Virus record (IMG/VR): IMGVR_UViG_3300040816_000093
Span: 1 to 37,335 of that record
From: a virus
Lineage: Duplodnaviria > Caudoviricetes
Strand: one strand, 5' to 3'
Length of the DNA: 37,335 bases
In this document: positions 6,309 to 36,015 of the stretch, one piece after another
Position numbering within the stretch: position 1 is the stretch's first letter
Layout: each line of letters begins with the position of its first letter
Position numbers and translations under genes: made by a program
Notes under the pieces: generated by a model
Seen by the model: the letters and a program-made list of their open reading frames with translations, nothing else
Database searches by the model: none
Told to the model about the DNA's origin: nothing

Positions 6309-6390
6309 ACTTATCACTCAACAAAAGCCAGAACGCAAAAGTGAAAGCGACAAAGACAATCAGCGCAATTTCTTGTCCGGTAAAATGCAT
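6298..6390 (-). CDS. 30-aa single-TM membrane protein (not in ORF track)
   Basis: MHFTGQEIALIVFVAFTFAFWLLLSDKYED*; overlaps both neighbours. Confidence 0.5.
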   Translation of the reverse strand: MHFTGQEIALIVFVAFTFAFWLLLSDKYED

Positions 6391-6845
6391 TGCTGTCCCC
6401 ATAAGGCGATCAACGCGGCCTCCGCTCTTCCATCATCCTTCACGCGTTTAAACCGATCCGCTTGATCGGGCCATAATTGAGAAGCCAGTTCACGCGACGA
6501 CACCTTGTCGTTGCCAAGTTTGAAATGCTTCTTCCATGTTTGCGGTCTGACGCCTGTCACGTCCGGCGTCATCACCCATGCAATCGCTTCAGCGATTCCA
6601 CTTGCCTGACCGAACGCGAACATCGAACTGACGCCTTGATTCGGTCTGGCGTTGACGATCTCGATAAAGGCGTGTTCAAGCTTCTCAAACTGGAGAATCT
6701 CGTACAACGCCCTCGCGTCAATGCGTCGTTTCTTCTTCCCGCCGACCGTCACCGAGACTGTCGGCATATCGTGGACCTCGACAAGTTTGTTTCCATCCAA
6801 TAGTGCGACAGCCCCACTGATGCCGACATCTATTCCTAAGATCAA
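6360..6845 (-). CDS. RuvC-like Holliday junction resolvase (start re-called to TTG 6845)
   Basis: ILGIDVG, AFIE, QGVSSMFAFG, PQTWK, DGRAEAALIA; TTGA overlap with the upstream stop. Confidence 0.9.
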   Translation of the reverse strand: MILGIDVGISGAVALLDGNKLVEVHDMPTVSVTVGGKKKRRIDARALYEILQFEKLEHAFIEIVNARPNQGVSSMFAFGQASGIAEAIAWVMTPDVTGVRPQTWKKHFKLGNDKVSSRELASQLWPDQADRFKRVKDDGRAEAALIALWGQQCILPDKKLR

Positions 6846-7060
6846 ACGTCCGTCTCCGCAACTTCGCGAGAAAGTCGTTGGATAGCATCGCGAATTGCAG
6901 TAACACTTGCTTTTCGTGGAGATGAGGCGTTCTGCAACCAACGCCAAAAAGTAGCTCGGCTAACGCCTGCTTCGGAGAGGACTCTTGCACGACTAACTCC
7001 TGCTTCGGTCATTTCGTTTTGTAGCTTATAAGCTACATCAAACGCTTCTTGGTTTATCAC
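6842..7060 (-). CDS. Cro/Xre-like HTH regulator
   Basis: GVSRARVLSEAGVSRATFWRWLQNASSPR. Confidence 0.8.
   Translation of the reverse strand: MINQEAFDVAYKLQNEMTEAGVSRARVLSEAGVSRATFWRWLQNASSPRKASVTAIRDAIQRLSREVAETDV
7020..7037. promoter_or_regulatory. Perfect 18-bp palindrome TGTAGCTTATAAGCTACA; candidate operator
   Basis: Exact dyad symmetry within the 5' end of the HTH gene; function inferred. Confidence 0.4.
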
Positions 7061-13166: not shown

Positions 13167-14666
13167 CTATCTCCGGCTACCTTGTTTAAGGTTCATTCGT
13201 ATTGTACCAAATTTAAACTGCTCATCCCGCGTAGCTTCTAGTTTAACGCGTAACTGTCTAGCTGTCAGACGAACGTCGATGTATCCGTCTGTTTCGCCTA
13301 GTAGAAACTCTGAGTCAGAGTAGCTTTCCTCTGGCGTATTCTTTGTCCCGATGACTGCTTTTAACGATGGGAGGTTTTCGTAGTCGTCGGTAATGATTCG
13401 GTCAACGACTGCAAATCTATCCCCCTGCCCAAGCTCAATCGGACCACTGACAGCGTACACATCACCAACTCGCGTTGCTCCGTTATCCAAAGACCCAATC
13501 TCGTGGAAATAAGATACGCCATCTGGGTCGACAGCGATCGGGTTCCTAAACACACCTTGGTCTACCCAACAGGTTCTTGCTAGGGAGCCTACCGCCCAGT
13601 GTCCATACCTATAATTGTAAATGATGTACTTGTCATTTTCGGTAGACGATGCTGATGGGTAGAAGAACCACATTTCGCCGAACTCTGAGTTATGCCCGCC
13701 AAACGTTTTGTTACCCTGTCCTGCGTTAATCTGGTCTGTTACATCAATTAAGGCGTCGCACTGTAATGGCCTGATTGCCCCGTCATAAATCCAAAACCCG
13801 GATTCGCTTAGCCAGACAGCCGTGTTCCCCGCAACGACCATGCCATTCGGACCAATGATCCCGCAGTTCGTGCCAATGCGCTCAATGCCGTAAACATACG
13901 GAGGGCCAAGGTATCGCATCAAGTGGACATCAACGTCTGTCCAGATCAAGATATCAGCGCCAACCTTTCTGGCGCATTTAATGTTGCCTGACGTTTCTAG
14001 CAACAAGTCTCCTGCTAGGTTAGACGCCGCAGGAGTCCATGTGGTGTTATCTTCTTGGTCCGAGAAAGCAACCTTGCGCGGGTCGCCATCAGCGCCTAAC
14101 GCCACTAAGTGCCGTTCGTTAGAAACAAGAAGACCCTGGCAATCAATAGGCGCATTGGCGATCACAGCGGCAACAACGTTTTCATCGCCTGTCCACTCAA
14201 TAAGCCGACCATCAGCCGTCGAACAAGCAACCAGATATTCGCCCCAGTTATCAAGCGACCAAGTTGTTGCGTTTAGTGTTAGCTCGCCACTTATGCGCTC
14301 TACGCCATAAGGCTCTTGGCCGAAGTTGCCCGACCCGTAGCCAACGCCTAAGAAAGAGTCTTCCCGCCCCTCGACTAGGTCTGCCGGTTGGATTTCGTAA
14401 AACTTTCCACCCGTTGAAATATACAGTTTTGTAGAAGTACCAACAGCTAGCCTTGGATTCTGCGAGTTGTTTCTCCATGAATGAATCCCTCTCGCCGTTC
14501 CGCTGATTGCGGGAGACGTTGCATCGAAGTTAGTCCAACCGCCGACAGGCTCAAGACGCCCTTCGCGCCAACGAACTAAATTCGTGTCAAACCAACGACC
14601 CTTGGATTCGTATTCTGTCCCGTTTCGATAAACTCCGGGAGGTATGTCGAGCGGTACTAATGGCAT
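13167..14666 (-). CDS. Tail hub/nozzle, P22 gp10-like DNA stabilisation protein
   Basis: 499-aa beta-rich protein (FSDQED..W.P, CGIIGP, E.WFFYP, YNY...W..G); gene position. Confidence 0.75.
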   Translation of the reverse strand: MPLVPLDIPPGVYRNGTEYESKGRWFDTNLVRWREGRLEPVGGWTNFDATSPAISGTARGIHSWRNNSQNPRLAVGTSTKLYISTGGKFYEIQPADLVEGREDSFLGVGYGSGNFGQEPYGVERISGELTLNATTWSLDNWGEYLVACSTADGRLIEWTGDENVVAAVIANAPIDCQGLLVSNERHLVALGADGDPRKVAFSDQEDNTTWTPAASNLAGDLLLETSGNIKCARKVGADILIWTDVDVHLMRYLGPPYVYGIERIGTNCGIIGPNGMVVAGNTAVWLSESGFWIYDGAIRPLQCDALIDVTDQINAGQGNKTFGGHNSEFGEMWFFYPSASSTENDKYIIYNYRYGHWAVGSLARTCWVDQGVFRNPIAVDPDGVSYFHEIGSLDNGATRVGDVYAVSGPIELGQGDRFAVVDRIITDDYENLPSLKAVIGTKNTPEESYSDSEFLLGETDGYIDVRLTARQLRVKLEATRDEQFKFGTIRMNLKQGSRR

Positions 14667-15175
14667 TAGTCATCCTCAATGCTAAAGCTGTTGTGCTTTA
14701 TTGCGTTTTCTTCTGCGGTAATCACTTGCGTATTCGCATCGTTGTGTAAGCCGCAAACAAGTTTATGCGCTAAAGGCACAATGTGGTCTACCACATATTC
14801 TACGCCAGTTTCTAGTGTGAGTCTCTGCGCTTCTAAATACTTGAGTTTCATCCGCCGCTCGCCTTCTTCGGTGAACACCGACGCAAACAGTAAACGCTTC
14901 CGTCTAATTCGATTGTTATTCCTGTATAAGTGCTTGTGCTTTTTGTAATGCTCGCTTGCGGCTTCCCGCTTCTTTCGTTTGTACTCAAGGTTACCGTATC
15001 CCTTCCAGTAACCTTTGGTCGTTCGTTCTCGGTTTCGCTCGTTAATGCAGTCGCGACAGTTCTTGTTACTGGTGAAGCGGGGCGCGATGTGTCCACGGCT
15101 ACATGGAACATTGGTGAAGTAGTAATCACTGCCACTCGCAACCGCCTCTTTGCGAGTCTTCGGTATCCCTTCCAT
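14666..15175 (-). CDS. HNH endonuclease (homing-type)
   Basis: VDHIVPL...VCGLH...N..VITAEENAIK; N-terminal C..GH...C..C zinc motif. Confidence 0.88.
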   Translation of the reverse strand: MEGIPKTRKEAVASGSDYYFTNVPCSRGHIAPRFTSNKNCRDCINERNRERTTKGYWKGYGNLEYKRKKREAASEHYKKHKHLYRNNNRIRRKRLLFASVFTEEGERRMKLKYLEAQRLTLETGVEYVVDHIVPLAHKLVCGLHNDANTQVITAEENAIKHNSFSIEDD

Positions 15176-31829: not shown

Positions 31830-33866
31830 TTAAAGCGGTGAAAGTAATCCAGTTGCGGTGCGGATCGCATCTCGTCCGTACCCTTCATCCATATACCCGC
31901 CTTGAGTATACAACCTAACAAGTTCTTGGTCAGACAGTCGGGGCATCCGATACTCTGTTCCTAGTAATTCAGAGATAGCGTTTACGGTGTCTGGCACTAG
32001 GAAGTCAGCCGTGCCGACGATTGCTTCATTCAGTGCAGAACCGATCTCAGCCGGTACAGCGAGCAATGGGTTCAACTGACCTTCAGGTGTTACGGCTTCT
32101 GATGCGAGTAAGCCGCCAACCGCTCCGACTGGGGCGGGGGAGGCCATGATGTTCGGATTACCGATCTCATCTGGGTCAAAGGCGGCACTTGTTGACCTGA
32201 TCTGATCTGGATTACGCACTATCATCACGTCGCCAGAGCGGGAAAGTAACGAATCGCCCTGCCCTGCATTGAAATCCTTGAACGCCTGAAGATCGCCACG
32301 CGTCATTAAGTCTTCGGTTTTTAGGTAGACAGGAATAACGTTCGCGCCATCGTCAACCGCGTATTCAGAAGCTACCTTTGGATTACGGGAAAAATAAAAT
32401 CCTTGCGGAAGCGCCGCAGGTGTTCTGCCCTTGCCTTTACCAATCAATGCGGGGTCAAAGGCAAGAATATCCTTATCCGTCCCATGAAAGTATCTTGTAT
32501 CAATATCAAAGCCTTGATCTTCCGCCCTAATCATCCGAGACTCGAAGTCCATCGGCAGTTCGCCGGAAACGATCTTTTGCGCTGTTGATTCTGGGTAACC
32601 GGCTTCGACCAACTTCTTGACGGACGGTAGTACACCCGCCTCTGCCTGTGCCGCAGTCAGGATTCCTGCGCTGACAAGTGTTGCCTTCAGAGCTTTAGGT
32701 AGTGGCTTGCCGCGCTTGACGAAATCGATGTATGCGTTGATATCGTCAGCGCGTTGTTGTGTGGCGATTTCATAACTGCCTACATTGTCCGGTCCACGCT
32801 TATTAAACGCGTCGATTCTCTGACCTCTAGGCATCGGTTGGCCTGCTTTGTTTAACTGACTACCTAGCACCCTGTTGGCTTCTGGCGCATTAAGCTCAAA
32901 CGGAATAGGGATCTCATATTGAGAAACGTCCCCGCCCTGCGCGAACATATGCGAATAAGTTCTATGGAGGTCGCCAGTAGGAACAACCGGCGCACCAATC
33001 TCTGGAGTGAATATGGTTGACCCTGCATCACCGTAGTTCAAATCCTTCAACTCAGGGTCAGTGATCACTTCATTGATCTGATTAAAGCTAGGCATTCCCG
33101 CATCACGATAAGGTGCTTTTGAGCTTTGTTTTATAAACCACTTTCTTAGCTCGCCCGCTGTTCCCTCTATTACCTCTCCCTTCTTGTTGTAAGTCGAGAT
33201 TGGAGCTTCTCCTGCTAACTGAGCAATCCCCTCTGGCGTATCGAAACCTGCGAAGTCTGGGAAACCCGTAAATCCACTATCTGCTTTCTTGCCTAATCTT
33301 GTCTTTGTTCTTACTGCTTTGTTCAGAGACTCCTTGATGGTTTTTGTCATCGGAATCTCTTGAGCCATTTTCGCCATGATCAAAGCCGGAGGATCGCTAA
33401 AATCGATAGCTTGTTTGCTCATCACGTTGACAACAGCCTGCACCGGCATATTCAGATCATTTGCAATTTTGTCGATCTTCTTTTGGTATCGCTCTGCAAT
33501 TTCTTGACCCGAAGCCCAAGCCTCGTTACCCCTTGCAAAACCTTGTCCCCCTTGGATCGTCACGCCATCAGGAACTAATAATCCGCCGATCATGTTTGCT
33601 TCGCCAACATCAGATCGATCACTGGGGACGCCAACAATCACGGAGCCTACATCTTCTTCAGCGTTCCGTATCCTAGGCGTTGGCAGATCCTTCCGTGTGT
33701 ACTGAGTCTCAAAGCCGCGCTCAATCGCCATCATCTCACGATCACGAAGATTCTTGCTTTTCGATAACGCCTCTTCGTATTTCTTCCGGCTCGGGAATCC
33801 TAACGAAAAGATTCTGGAATCCGATATCATGTTTGCGATTTGCTTTGCTACCTGAACTGCGCTCAC
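31830..33866 (-). CDS. Modular protein with ART-PolyVal-like ADP-ribosyltransferase domain (start re-called to GTG 33866)
   Basis: YFHGT...F...GFYFS....ASEYA....V.PVYL...IV..PDQIRS..AAFDP; GTGA overlap with the upstream stop. Confidence 0.72.
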   Translation of the reverse strand: MSAVQVAKQIANMISDSRIFSLGFPSRKKYEEALSKSKNLRDREMMAIERGFETQYTRKDLPTPRIRNAEEDVGSVIVGVPSDRSDVGEANMIGGLLVPDGVTIQGGQGFARGNEAWASGQEIAERYQKKIDKIANDLNMPVQAVVNVMSKQAIDFSDPPALIMAKMAQEIPMTKTIKESLNKAVRTKTRLGKKADSGFTGFPDFAGFDTPEGIAQLAGEAPISTYNKKGEVIEGTAGELRKWFIKQSSKAPYRDAGMPSFNQINEVITDPELKDLNYGDAGSTIFTPEIGAPVVPTGDLHRTYSHMFAQGGDVSQYEIPIPFELNAPEANRVLGSQLNKAGQPMPRGQRIDAFNKRGPDNVGSYEIATQQRADDINAYIDFVKRGKPLPKALKATLVSAGILTAAQAEAGVLPSVKKLVEAGYPESTAQKIVSGELPMDFESRMIRAEDQGFDIDTRYFHGTDKDILAFDPALIGKGKGRTPAALPQGFYFSRNPKVASEYAVDDGANVIPVYLKTEDLMTRGDLQAFKDFNAGQGDSLLSRSGDVMIVRNPDQIRSTSAAFDPDEIGNPNIMASPAPVGAVGGLLASEAVTPEGQLNPLLAVPAEIGSALNEAIVGTADFLVPDTVNAISELLGTEYRMPRLSDQELVRLYTQGGYMDEGYGRDAIRTATGLLSPL

Positions 33867-34099
33867 TTCTTCACACTCTTCTTGCCGGAACACTGCCACC
33901 GCTTACGCGATAGCCGGAGGGGGGAGTTGGGGTCTTTGGCGGCTTTCGGGTACTGCTTCATTTGCTCATACGATCGAGCGCAGTAAGCGTCGCCTTTCGG
34001 GGTATTCGGTCGGACGCTTGCGCCTTTTGCACCATAGGAAACCTTTTTCCCGGTCGCCGTGACTTTGACCTTCGCCTTGCCTTTCGCCGGTTTAGGCAC
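33863..34099 (-). CDS. 78-aa basic protein (YCARS...DPNS.LR..R.RW.C family); real 3' part of the 147-aa track ORF
   Basis: GTG start overlapping the upstream gene; K/R-rich. Confidence 0.75.
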   Translation of the reverse strand: MPKPAKGKAKVKVTATGKKVSYGAKGASVRPNTPKGDAYCARSYEQMKQYPKAAKDPNSPLRLSRKRWQCSGKKSVKK

Positions 34100-34263: not shown

Positions 34264-35682
34264 TCAGATGACCCCTTTTATCAATCGTTTCAAAGGTTGA
34301 GTCCAACTAGACCCACTAGCAGACCCATAAATACCCACAGCCGCATCACCGGCTAGGGTTAGTATACACGCGTCTGCCAAATCAGGCGACGATAGCCCGC
34401 GCTTCTTCATCTCGTCCTTAGATTCCAATCGCAACCGCCCGGACGAATTAAAAGTATACCGGGGGGACGTAAGCTCTGCGAGTAGATCATCATCCTTCGG
34501 TAACGCGCATCCGCGTTGCTCCAACCAGTTCTTCATCTTCCCCCATAGCTCAGCACGAAGATTCACATAAGCGTTCTTCATTGCCGGTGATTCGGAGACG
34601 TTAATCCCGATCGCCGGTAGACCGAGTTCGCGTAATCGGTCAACGACCCCTGACCCCAGGCCGATCGAATCAATATATATAGCGGTCGGTCGATCTAGCG
34701 ATTCTTCGGCGTCGTATTCATTCTTGATTGCGCCAACCAGTTGCATGAGATCAAGACCTTGCCACTTCTTCACCTCGGTAATTACGTTGCCTTTCTTCTT
34801 GGCGAGCGCAGACTTATCCGAACCAAAGCGAGCCACGTCGATCCCATAAGTCATCTGCGAGAACTGGTCGACCTCGATGTCACGGTTCATCGCTTGCTCA
34901 ACAACAGAGAACGGAATCATCGTGTCGTCGTCTGACAACGGGAACTCACCCAGTACGCGGACGCGGTAGGCGTTCGACTCCTCGCCATACTTAATCGCCA
35001 TTTCGCGCACGAACTCTTTCGATACGCGCTTAGAGTGTTCGCAGTTGACGTGAAGCGTGAACCATTCATCCTTAAGTCGGTTGTGCGTTTCATAGAAGTA
35101 TCCGCTTGATCGAACCGGGTTCCCGAGCAAGATGGTGACCGCATTGTGTCCCGACATAGAACCTGCCGCCGCTTCAAACACCGCCTCTGGAACACCGGAA
35201 GCCTCATCGGCAACAAGCATGACGTGTTCCGAGTGGATGCCCTGTAACGCTTCTGGTTGCTCGGCGCGTGACGTTCTAGCCGAGATGAACGCCTCAGTAG
35301 GCGATGGGCGTAGCTCGATACGATCGCTTTTCACCTCAAGCAACTCACGCAATGCCGGGTCAAGCTCCTTCACCCATCGCTTAATCTCAGCAAACAACGC
35401 ATCGAATAACTGTGATGACGTGGGGGCCGTGACGACAACCTTGACTGGATAACGCGTCAGCAGATACCAGAGCATCGCCCAACTTGCCGCTGTTGACTTC
35501 CCGACCCCGTGACCCGATCGGACGGAGACGCGGCGATTGTTGTCGGCGATTGATCGAAGGAACTGCGATTGCCAGTCATCCGGTTGGACGCCGAACACCT
35601 TCTCCACGAACAGCACCGGATCGTTGCGGTACTTCAGGATAAAGTCGTCGAATGGATTTTCAATTTTCGTGGGTTCGCTCAT
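34264..35682 (-). CDS. terL: Terminase large subunit
   Basis: Walker A SGHGVGKS, VTAPT, Walker B LVADEASG, LGNP; nuclease GIDVARFG.D and SPDLAD. Confidence 0.96.
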   Translation of the reverse strand: MSEPTKIENPFDDFILKYRNDPVLFVEKVFGVQPDDWQSQFLRSIADNNRRVSVRSGHGVGKSTAASWAMLWYLLTRYPVKVVVTAPTSSQLFDALFAEIKRWVKELDPALRELLEVKSDRIELRPSPTEAFISARTSRAEQPEALQGIHSEHVMLVADEASGVPEAVFEAAAGSMSGHNAVTILLGNPVRSSGYFYETHNRLKDEWFTLHVNCEHSKRVSKEFVREMAIKYGEESNAYRVRVLGEFPLSDDDTMIPFSVVEQAMNRDIEVDQFSQMTYGIDVARFGSDKSALAKKKGNVITEVKKWQGLDLMQLVGAIKNEYDAEESLDRPTAIYIDSIGLGSGVVDRLRELGLPAIGINVSESPAMKNAYVNLRAELWGKMKNWLEQRGCALPKDDDLLAELTSPRYTFNSSGRLRLESKDEMKKRGLSSPDLADACILTLAGDAAVGIYGSASGSSWTQPLKRLIKGVI

Positions 35683-35780
35683 TTCGCTCCTATACCCCTA
35701 GGGGTTACGCCGATGTGTGTCTCGTACCCGCCGCCGCCGCCCCGTCAAATAAATCGATGGGGGGGGTCATCGCGGCGGAC

Positions 35781-35789
35781 TTATCCACA
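35781..35789 (+). promoter_or_regulatory. DnaA box (perfect); a second one-mismatch box lies at 35846-35854
   Basis: TTATCCACA and CTATCCACA in the same orientation, in the terS-terL gap. Confidence 0.6.
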
Positions 35790-35875
35790 GATCGACGTTT
35801 TTTCGTGTTCAAGTATTGACCAATCCGTGCCGACCATTTCGTGACCTATCCACAGGCTGACAACGATCCTAACGA

Positions 35876-35888
35876 AATCAATAACTTA
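35876..35888 (+). promoter_or_regulatory. IHF-binding consensus
   Basis: AATCAATAACTTA matches WATCAANNNNTTR exactly. Confidence 0.65.
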
Positions 35889-35911
35889 CGTCGCAACGTT
35901 GCCAAGTTACT

Positions 35912-35939
35912 TCGGCGCATAACTATCATTATGTTAAAT
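35912..35939 (+). other. dif-like XerC/XerD recombination site
   Basis: TCGGCGCATAA-CTATCA-TTATGTTAAAT versus E. coli dif GGTGCGCATAA-TGTATA-TTATGTTAAAT: XerD arm 11/11, XerC arm 8/11, 6-bp spacer. Confidence 0.88.
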
Positions 35940-36015
35940 CGATAATTGGTCGCCGGTCACGATGTGGTCACGTCGCCTCGCGTGCGCGTATCCACGTCGG
36001 TGCGTGTTTTCTCCG

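Follow-up and report, generated by a model that had tools for sequence, protein, structure and literature searches.

XerC and XerD are the host recombinases that act at the chromosomal dif site, where they need FtsK, and at the plasmid sites cer and psi, where they need accessory proteins. At cer, XerC makes the junction and another resolvase completes the exchange. Elements that integrate at the host dif (IMEXs), such as VGJ, TLC and GGI, retain dif homology at least on the XerC side (PMC5357621). The tyroviruses encode Xer-like enzymes of their own (PMC9703825). In phage P1 the terminal repeats must recombine after injection, for which a RecBCD route has been described (10.1101/2021.07.08.451572). 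Within the literature searched, Xer use is described only for non-tailed phages, satellites, islands and plasmids (PMC12715192, PMC7062461, PMC5357621). A dif site linked to the terminase genes or to the terminal repeats of tailed phages is not described in the full texts searched, which leave out subscription journals, and the main text of the BASEL paper mentions neither xerC nor a dif site.

The dif-like site and its phage

The window, that is, the whole stretch of 37,335 nt analysed here (IMGVR_UViG_3300040816_000093), is by gene content an apparently complete podophage of ~37.2 kb that occurs in estuary metagenomes and carries an SU10-type capsid, portal, adaptor and PrimPol-helicase. Its completeness, already proposed in an earlier note made from the letters of the window, agrees with a CheckV value of 100% and with the recurrence of the first ~126 bases from position 37203 (37203-37335 versus 1-133). 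This overlap, whose final 7 bases do not match the start, probably arose in assembly through a strain variant and accounts for the IMG/VR class "linear". The features that matter are the following:

6360..6947, minus strand: RuvC-like Holliday-junction resolvase (phrog_1770, E 1e-32)
34264..35682, minus strand: terminase large subunit, terL (phrog_2, E 3e-47)
35758..35766, minus strand: C-run, candidate marker of the packaging or terminal-repeat end; retained in all aligned relatives
35781..35789, plus strand: DnaA-box-like 9-mer TTATCCACA, with an imperfect repeat at 35847-35855; conserved 0.98 and 0.95
35876..35888, plus strand: IHF-consensus match; distance to the XerC arm 23 bp; the window has two such matches; conserved 0.92
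35912..35922, plus strand: predicted XerC-binding arm (TCGGCGCATAA); mean column identity 0.95 in 17 relatives
35923..35928, plus strand: 6-bp spacer CTATCA; five spacers among 19 relatives; A/G polymorphism at 35925
35929..35939, plus strand: predicted XerD-binding arm (TTATGTTAAAT); invariant in 17 aligned relatives; TTATGTTA in 19/19
36016..36531, minus strand: terminase small subunit, terS (phrog_1482, E 2e-21; PF20901)

The 28-bp site at 35912-35939 reads TCGGCGCATAA CTATCA TTATGTTAAAT and has the make-up of a dif-type core, with two 11-bp arms, a TAA/TTA dyad and a 6-bp spacer, much as the earlier note had described it. The pattern GCGCATAA-N6-TTATGTTAAAT has this single match in the window even when 3 mismatches are allowed; the chance expectation of an arm-pattern match is 0.02, and one was seen in 2 of 100 shuffles. 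Because the search patterns allowed only a 6-bp spacer, the spacer length carries no independent weight. As the note had also observed, the terL-terS gap that holds the site is the largest intergenic one; it measures 333 bp, and no sigma-70 promoter was found in it. The neighbouring motifs are matches to what we take to be the IHF consensus and, presumably, the DnaA box. At spacer position 35925 an A>G change is present in 4/4 sequencing runs, a polymorphism within the population.

The earlier note saw no recognisable integrase or resolvase in the phage, and it would have counted a phage-encoded recombinase with a different att site as evidence against its own reading. Six-frame profile searches of the window at E<=1 match neither Phage_integrase (PF00589) nor Resolvase (PF00239), none of the 46 ORFs compared with PHROGs and Pfam or of the 29 compared with NCBIfam is called a tyrosine or serine recombinase, and PF00589 is found in 0/5 relatives. 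The statement is too broad in one respect, as the window encodes the RuvC-like Holliday-junction resolvase, an ORF with no Pfam match at E 0.01; this enzyme is not a site-specific recombinase.

Other features of the genome were recorded in passing. KOPS-like octamers occur four times on the minus strand (8675, 10522, 13423, 32257) and not on the plus strand; on a circularised genome they would point to the XerD arm, and coding bias explains them equally well. Between terL and portal, a 689-aa ORF (31830-33899, minus strand) matches the ART-PolyVal ADP-ribosyltransferase domain at E 1e-10; in several close relatives this slot differs or has no match, which suggests from sequence a variable position for anti-host proteins. 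Between the endolysin and virion genes, an ORF at 14666-15175 (minus strand) looks HNH-endonuclease-like by eye and falls in PHROGs of unknown function.

Conservation in relatives and spread across tailed phages

Eighty IMG/VR loci related by TerL were collected, 67 of them with at least 300 bp of upstream DNA. At TerL identities of at least 85% the site is present in 19/19 relatives with that much upstream DNA, and the spacer is CTATCA in 12, CTGTCA in 3, TCTCTA in 2 and CATCCA and TCCTTA in one each. Conserved arms around a variable spacer in the terS-terL gaps of related phages are what the earlier note had named as support, and the absence from close relatives that it would have held against the idea is not the case. 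The site is found in 1/6 relatives at 57-70% identity and in 0/8 at 39%; at 46-52%, the XerD arm is of another type in 17/34, mostly TTATGGAA, and a TTATGCG variant occurs in a further 12, so that arm types change with the phage lineage. Matched downstream control stretches of the relatives contain no site match. Across 17 aligned gaps, identity is 1.00 in the XerD arm, 0.95 in the XerC arm, 0.85 in the spacer and 0.65-0.80 in neighbouring gap segments; the IHF-like motif, both DnaA-box-like motifs and the C-run are likewise retained. The arms are thus more conserved than spacer and flanks, and they match bacterial chromosomal arms, as in a dif-type site.

The site is optional, since the dif pattern is missing from phiM5, from five other capsid relatives (Venkman, HTVC106P, Octadecabacter virus 2, ppBeUSDA76-2 and MW202462), from the first 1.5 kb of BME3, which has a 342-bp repeat, and from many distant relatives. 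In three relatives without dif, a serine resolvase gene lies upstream of terL (L025:9286-10059 and L026:5097-5774, both directly; L032:796-1494, ~0.75 kb off), which may functionally replace dif. In L009 the block of DnaA-box-like motifs, IHF-like motif and dif is inverted relative to terL. Two further arrangements occur upstream of terL: a near-palindromic TCGCATAA-N6-TTATGCG instead of the standard XerD arm (L036-L041, L048, L049, L064, L067, L069, L074), and an 18-bp tandem-repeat array before the C-run, at the dif position (L027, L029).

Pattern scans of IMG/VR covered 9/64 parts (first arm pattern) and 28/64 parts, and the loci are not independent. The first scan gave 119 loci, 80 with flanks, and about 890 stretches are estimated; 91/112 long flanking ORFs were profiled. 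The site is next to a terminase gene in 39/80 loci (37 with a PHROG-called TerL and two relatives of the window) and in up to 45 when six tblastn matches to TerL, one only partial, are included; the rest are inovirus-like (19) or unassigned (16). The 39 terminase-linked sites fall into 11 TerL clusters, 38 of them lie upstream of terL, and their orientations are 24:15. They use 30 different spacers, TGTATA just once, with T or C as the first base in 28/30 and A as the last in 28/30. The 19 inovirus-like loci have TGTATA (14), TCTATA (3) or TATATA (2). An IHF-consensus match lies within 150 bp of 13/39 terminase-linked and 1/19 inoviral sites, against a background of 2%. A scan with the TTATGGAA arm places 35/80 loci beside TerL, with 20 spacers. 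Locus L151 and the phage EKP1 have an integrase of their own, yet carry dif just before terL, in EKP1 26 bp before the terminase gene.

For comparison, the arm pattern was matched in 152 of 401 bacterial genomes from the class of an Oceanospirillales MAG. About 97/149 of the matches listed have the spacer TGTATA or TATATA (a hand count that omits one unpublished genome), and none of the 150 listed has CTRTCA. The window spacer CTATCA shares 1/6 bases with either of the two.

Terminal repeats and the role of the site

Cultured phages were reached by blast of the site rather than by census, and those with terminal repeats represent two lineages. In the rV5-like E. coli phage EdH4, an exact terminal repeat of 459 bp carries dif in each copy (L259:170-197 and L260); PMC6563267 gives '458 bp terminal redundancies'. 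The related region matched 332 records, among the matches listed mostly rV5-like and related myoviruses, and in five of these records the site itself was checked. Two T7-like Ralstonia phages (Autographiviridae) show the same arrangement: RpT1 has dif at 82-109 and 40661-40688, in both copies of a 208-bp repeat (L228), and RpY2 in both copies of a 236-bp end repeat (L393/L394); these records are labelled circular, and the repeats were read from the record ends only. The genomes concerned measure 40-136 kb, and a random site would fall in such repeats with p about 0.003-0.004. The Ralstonia phages, whose hosts belong to the former Betaproteobacteria, carry the same XerD arm as the window, so the gammaproteobacterial host suggested in the earlier note is too narrow. 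The site also lies between terL and portal in phage Mulock and in the terS-terL gap of C72C1 (TerL 49%). PBES 02, with dif at 403, is uninformative as its record shows no end repeat; Vibrio K311-type, D-type and Bacillus blast matches were set aside, those inspected having no dif pattern.

The closest cultured relative with annotated ends is phiM5, whose 357-bp terminal repeat spans the end of terS, its first gene, to 34 bp past the C-run (315-323 in phiM5). Since this repeat takes in both the end of the first gene and the C-run that precedes terL, the terS-terL gap may be the physical genome end in the family. The dif site of the window lies ~150-180 bp from the C-run on the terS side and, by analogy with phiM5, would be covered by the terminal repeat. 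A rise in depth at ~35760-36070 in some runs was discarded as a terminus signal, being summed over strains in assembled contigs and giving no copy number.

With modest confidence, we favour a role in which host XerC and XerD recombine two phage dif copies and so join the terminally redundant ends into a circle or concatemer. Each end of the packaged DNA would hold a dif copy within its terminal redundancy, as in the records of EdH4, RpT1 and RpY2. After injection XerCD would join these ends into a circle, or would join replicated linear molecules into concatemers. As at cer, an exchange begun by XerC could be completed by XerD, by replication or, more speculatively, by the phage RuvC-like enzyme acting on the XerC-made junction. 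Both partners would have the same spacer, which could then drift freely as the arms keep pace with the host recombinases; arms that follow the host around a drifting spacer are what recombination between two copies on one genome predicts. The packaging-end position and the place inside terminal repeats would supply the two copies. T7-like phages are not known to circularise; in these, recombination would yield a concatemer, unless the role is non-catalytic. The earlier note had proposed that XerCD serves integration or dimer resolution. Conserved arms and a variable spacer do fit an XerCD site, but the link to the packaging end had been missed.

Self-recombination could instead resolve dimers or multimers of a circular or plasmid-like form, as at cer and psi, the vicinity of the terminase merely reflecting one large non-coding gap. 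This is unlikely, though it follows the same spacer logic (non-host and variable), the conserved IHF-like and DnaA-box-like block on the XerC side, inverting together with the site in L009, recalls cer/psi accessory DNA, and serine resolvases occupy the same place in three dif-less relatives. No partition or plasmid-maintenance gene is found among the window ORFs scanned (PHROGs, Pfam, NCBIfam), and neither the near-constant position upstream of terL in 11 clusters nor the presence of dif within terminal repeats is explained. Packaging phages need concatemers, which also counts against it. The tie to the packaging end in unrelated phages, within the terminal repeats of cultured ones, favours end joining over dimer resolution.

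Also improbable is that XerC and XerD bind without needing to recombine and, with IHF, protect DNA ends, stop a translocase or help terminase to position or duplicate the terminal repeat. Conserved arms, a free spacer and a site at the packaging end would fit, and IHF-like motifs seen by eye in the dif-less terminal repeat of BME3 suggest a scaffold of host proteins at the end region in any case. Against pure binding, the spacer bases at both cleavage points are constrained, as the first and last bases of the 30 spacers show.

Less probable still is that the site is an attP and the phage an IMEX that inserts into the chromosomal dif of its host. The lack of an integrase fits, and gokushoviruses integrate with motifs whose spacer and XerD arm vary, such prophages being rarely seen (PMC7062461); integration is for this reason only disfavoured. 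In this clade it is the XerD arm that does not vary, and integration would separate terS from terL. The rV5-like phages, to which the dif-bearing EdH4 belongs, are described as virulent (PMC8594841). With 1/6 bases shared with TGTATA or TATATA, neither strand exchange has homology to these dominant spacers, which may not be those of the actual host's dif; this agrees with the earlier note's preference for self-recombination over integration. Its expectation of prophage junctions at dif was not borne out: a TerL search of 185,579 genomes gave 25 loci with a best identity of 50%, the best of which (L084) has terS abutting terL and lacks dif, and a capsid (MCP) search of the 401 genomes gave 2 matches with no dif in the ~4-kb loci. 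Nor were joints found at 35923-35928: 6 runs contain no dif-like attL/attR joint in assembled contigs, where rare variants or lysogens would be lost. Where unitigs break at the site, the 35925 A/G variant and the strain flanks account for it. This spacer occurs in 22 metagenome stretches; 19 belong to the same clade and are flanked to the left and right by phage sequence for as long as each stretch runs (terS in 19, terL in 15, the other 4 stopping 12-276 bases into the gap), and three are unrelated elements.

A chance match or functionless relic, to which the shortness of the motif and the many site-less relatives at 39-70% TerL identity might point, is very improbable and already largely refuted by the low expectation, the selective conservation of the arms and the recurrence beside unrelated terminases.

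Comparison with known Xer systems

The chances seem about even that a host dif mimic with its own private spacer has arisen independently in the terminal redundancy of many unrelated tailed phages, common virulent ones included, where XerCD would circularise or concatemerise incoming DNA without RecA. To our knowledge, the end joining of injected linear phage DNA with short terminal repeats is poorly understood outside a few models. If true, this would add to dimer resolution and integration a third role for Xer, one in which a universal host recombinase joins ends in several lineages, including rV5-like coliphages, some T7-like phages and marine podophages. The genes xerC and xerD would be host factors of lytic phages, therapy candidates included. 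In a phage without an integrase, a dif match should then not be taken as a sign of lysogeny; in metagenomic phages the site would mark the genome end and the host group, the arms reporting the host class.

The phage site shares with chromosomal dif the 11-6-11 layout and the XerD arm and inner XerC arm of gammaproteobacterial genomes (PMC5357621). It differs in being on a phage, in its non-host, variable spacer and in its position at a packaging end. With the IMEXs (CTX, VGJ, TLC, GGI, dif-type DJR phages and gokushoviruses; PMC5357621, PMC12715192, PMC7062461) it has in common the lack of an integrase, a non-coding dif-like site and the presumed use of host XerCD. In contrast to these, it belongs to a tailed dsDNA phage, has no spacer homology to the dominant host dif spacers, keeps an intact and invariant XerD arm and has yielded no prophage junction in the assemblies searched, and terminase-linked dif sites also occur in virulent phages and in phages with an integrase of their own. 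Like plasmid cer and psi (PMC5357621), it would use host XerCD on its own site, with a non-chromosomal spacer, conserved DNA beside the core and possible finishing by a Holliday-junction resolvase. Unlike them it is found on a linear packaged genome, its neighbouring motifs are predicted IHF-like and DnaA-box-like ones rather than known binding DNA for PepA plus ArgR or ArcA, and it likely joins ends rather than splitting dimers. The circularisation of P1 offers a further parallel, as terminal repeats downstream of pac must recombine into a circle and a tyrosine-recombinase site in the redundancy would serve. P1 can also circularise through Cre-loxP. Here the recombinase would be the host's and not phage-encoded, and the repeats are probably a few hundred bases long. 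By its spacer the site thus differs from those of IMEXs, and it would work like a plasmid Xer site, or like loxP, placed in the terminal redundancy, without being Cre-lox.
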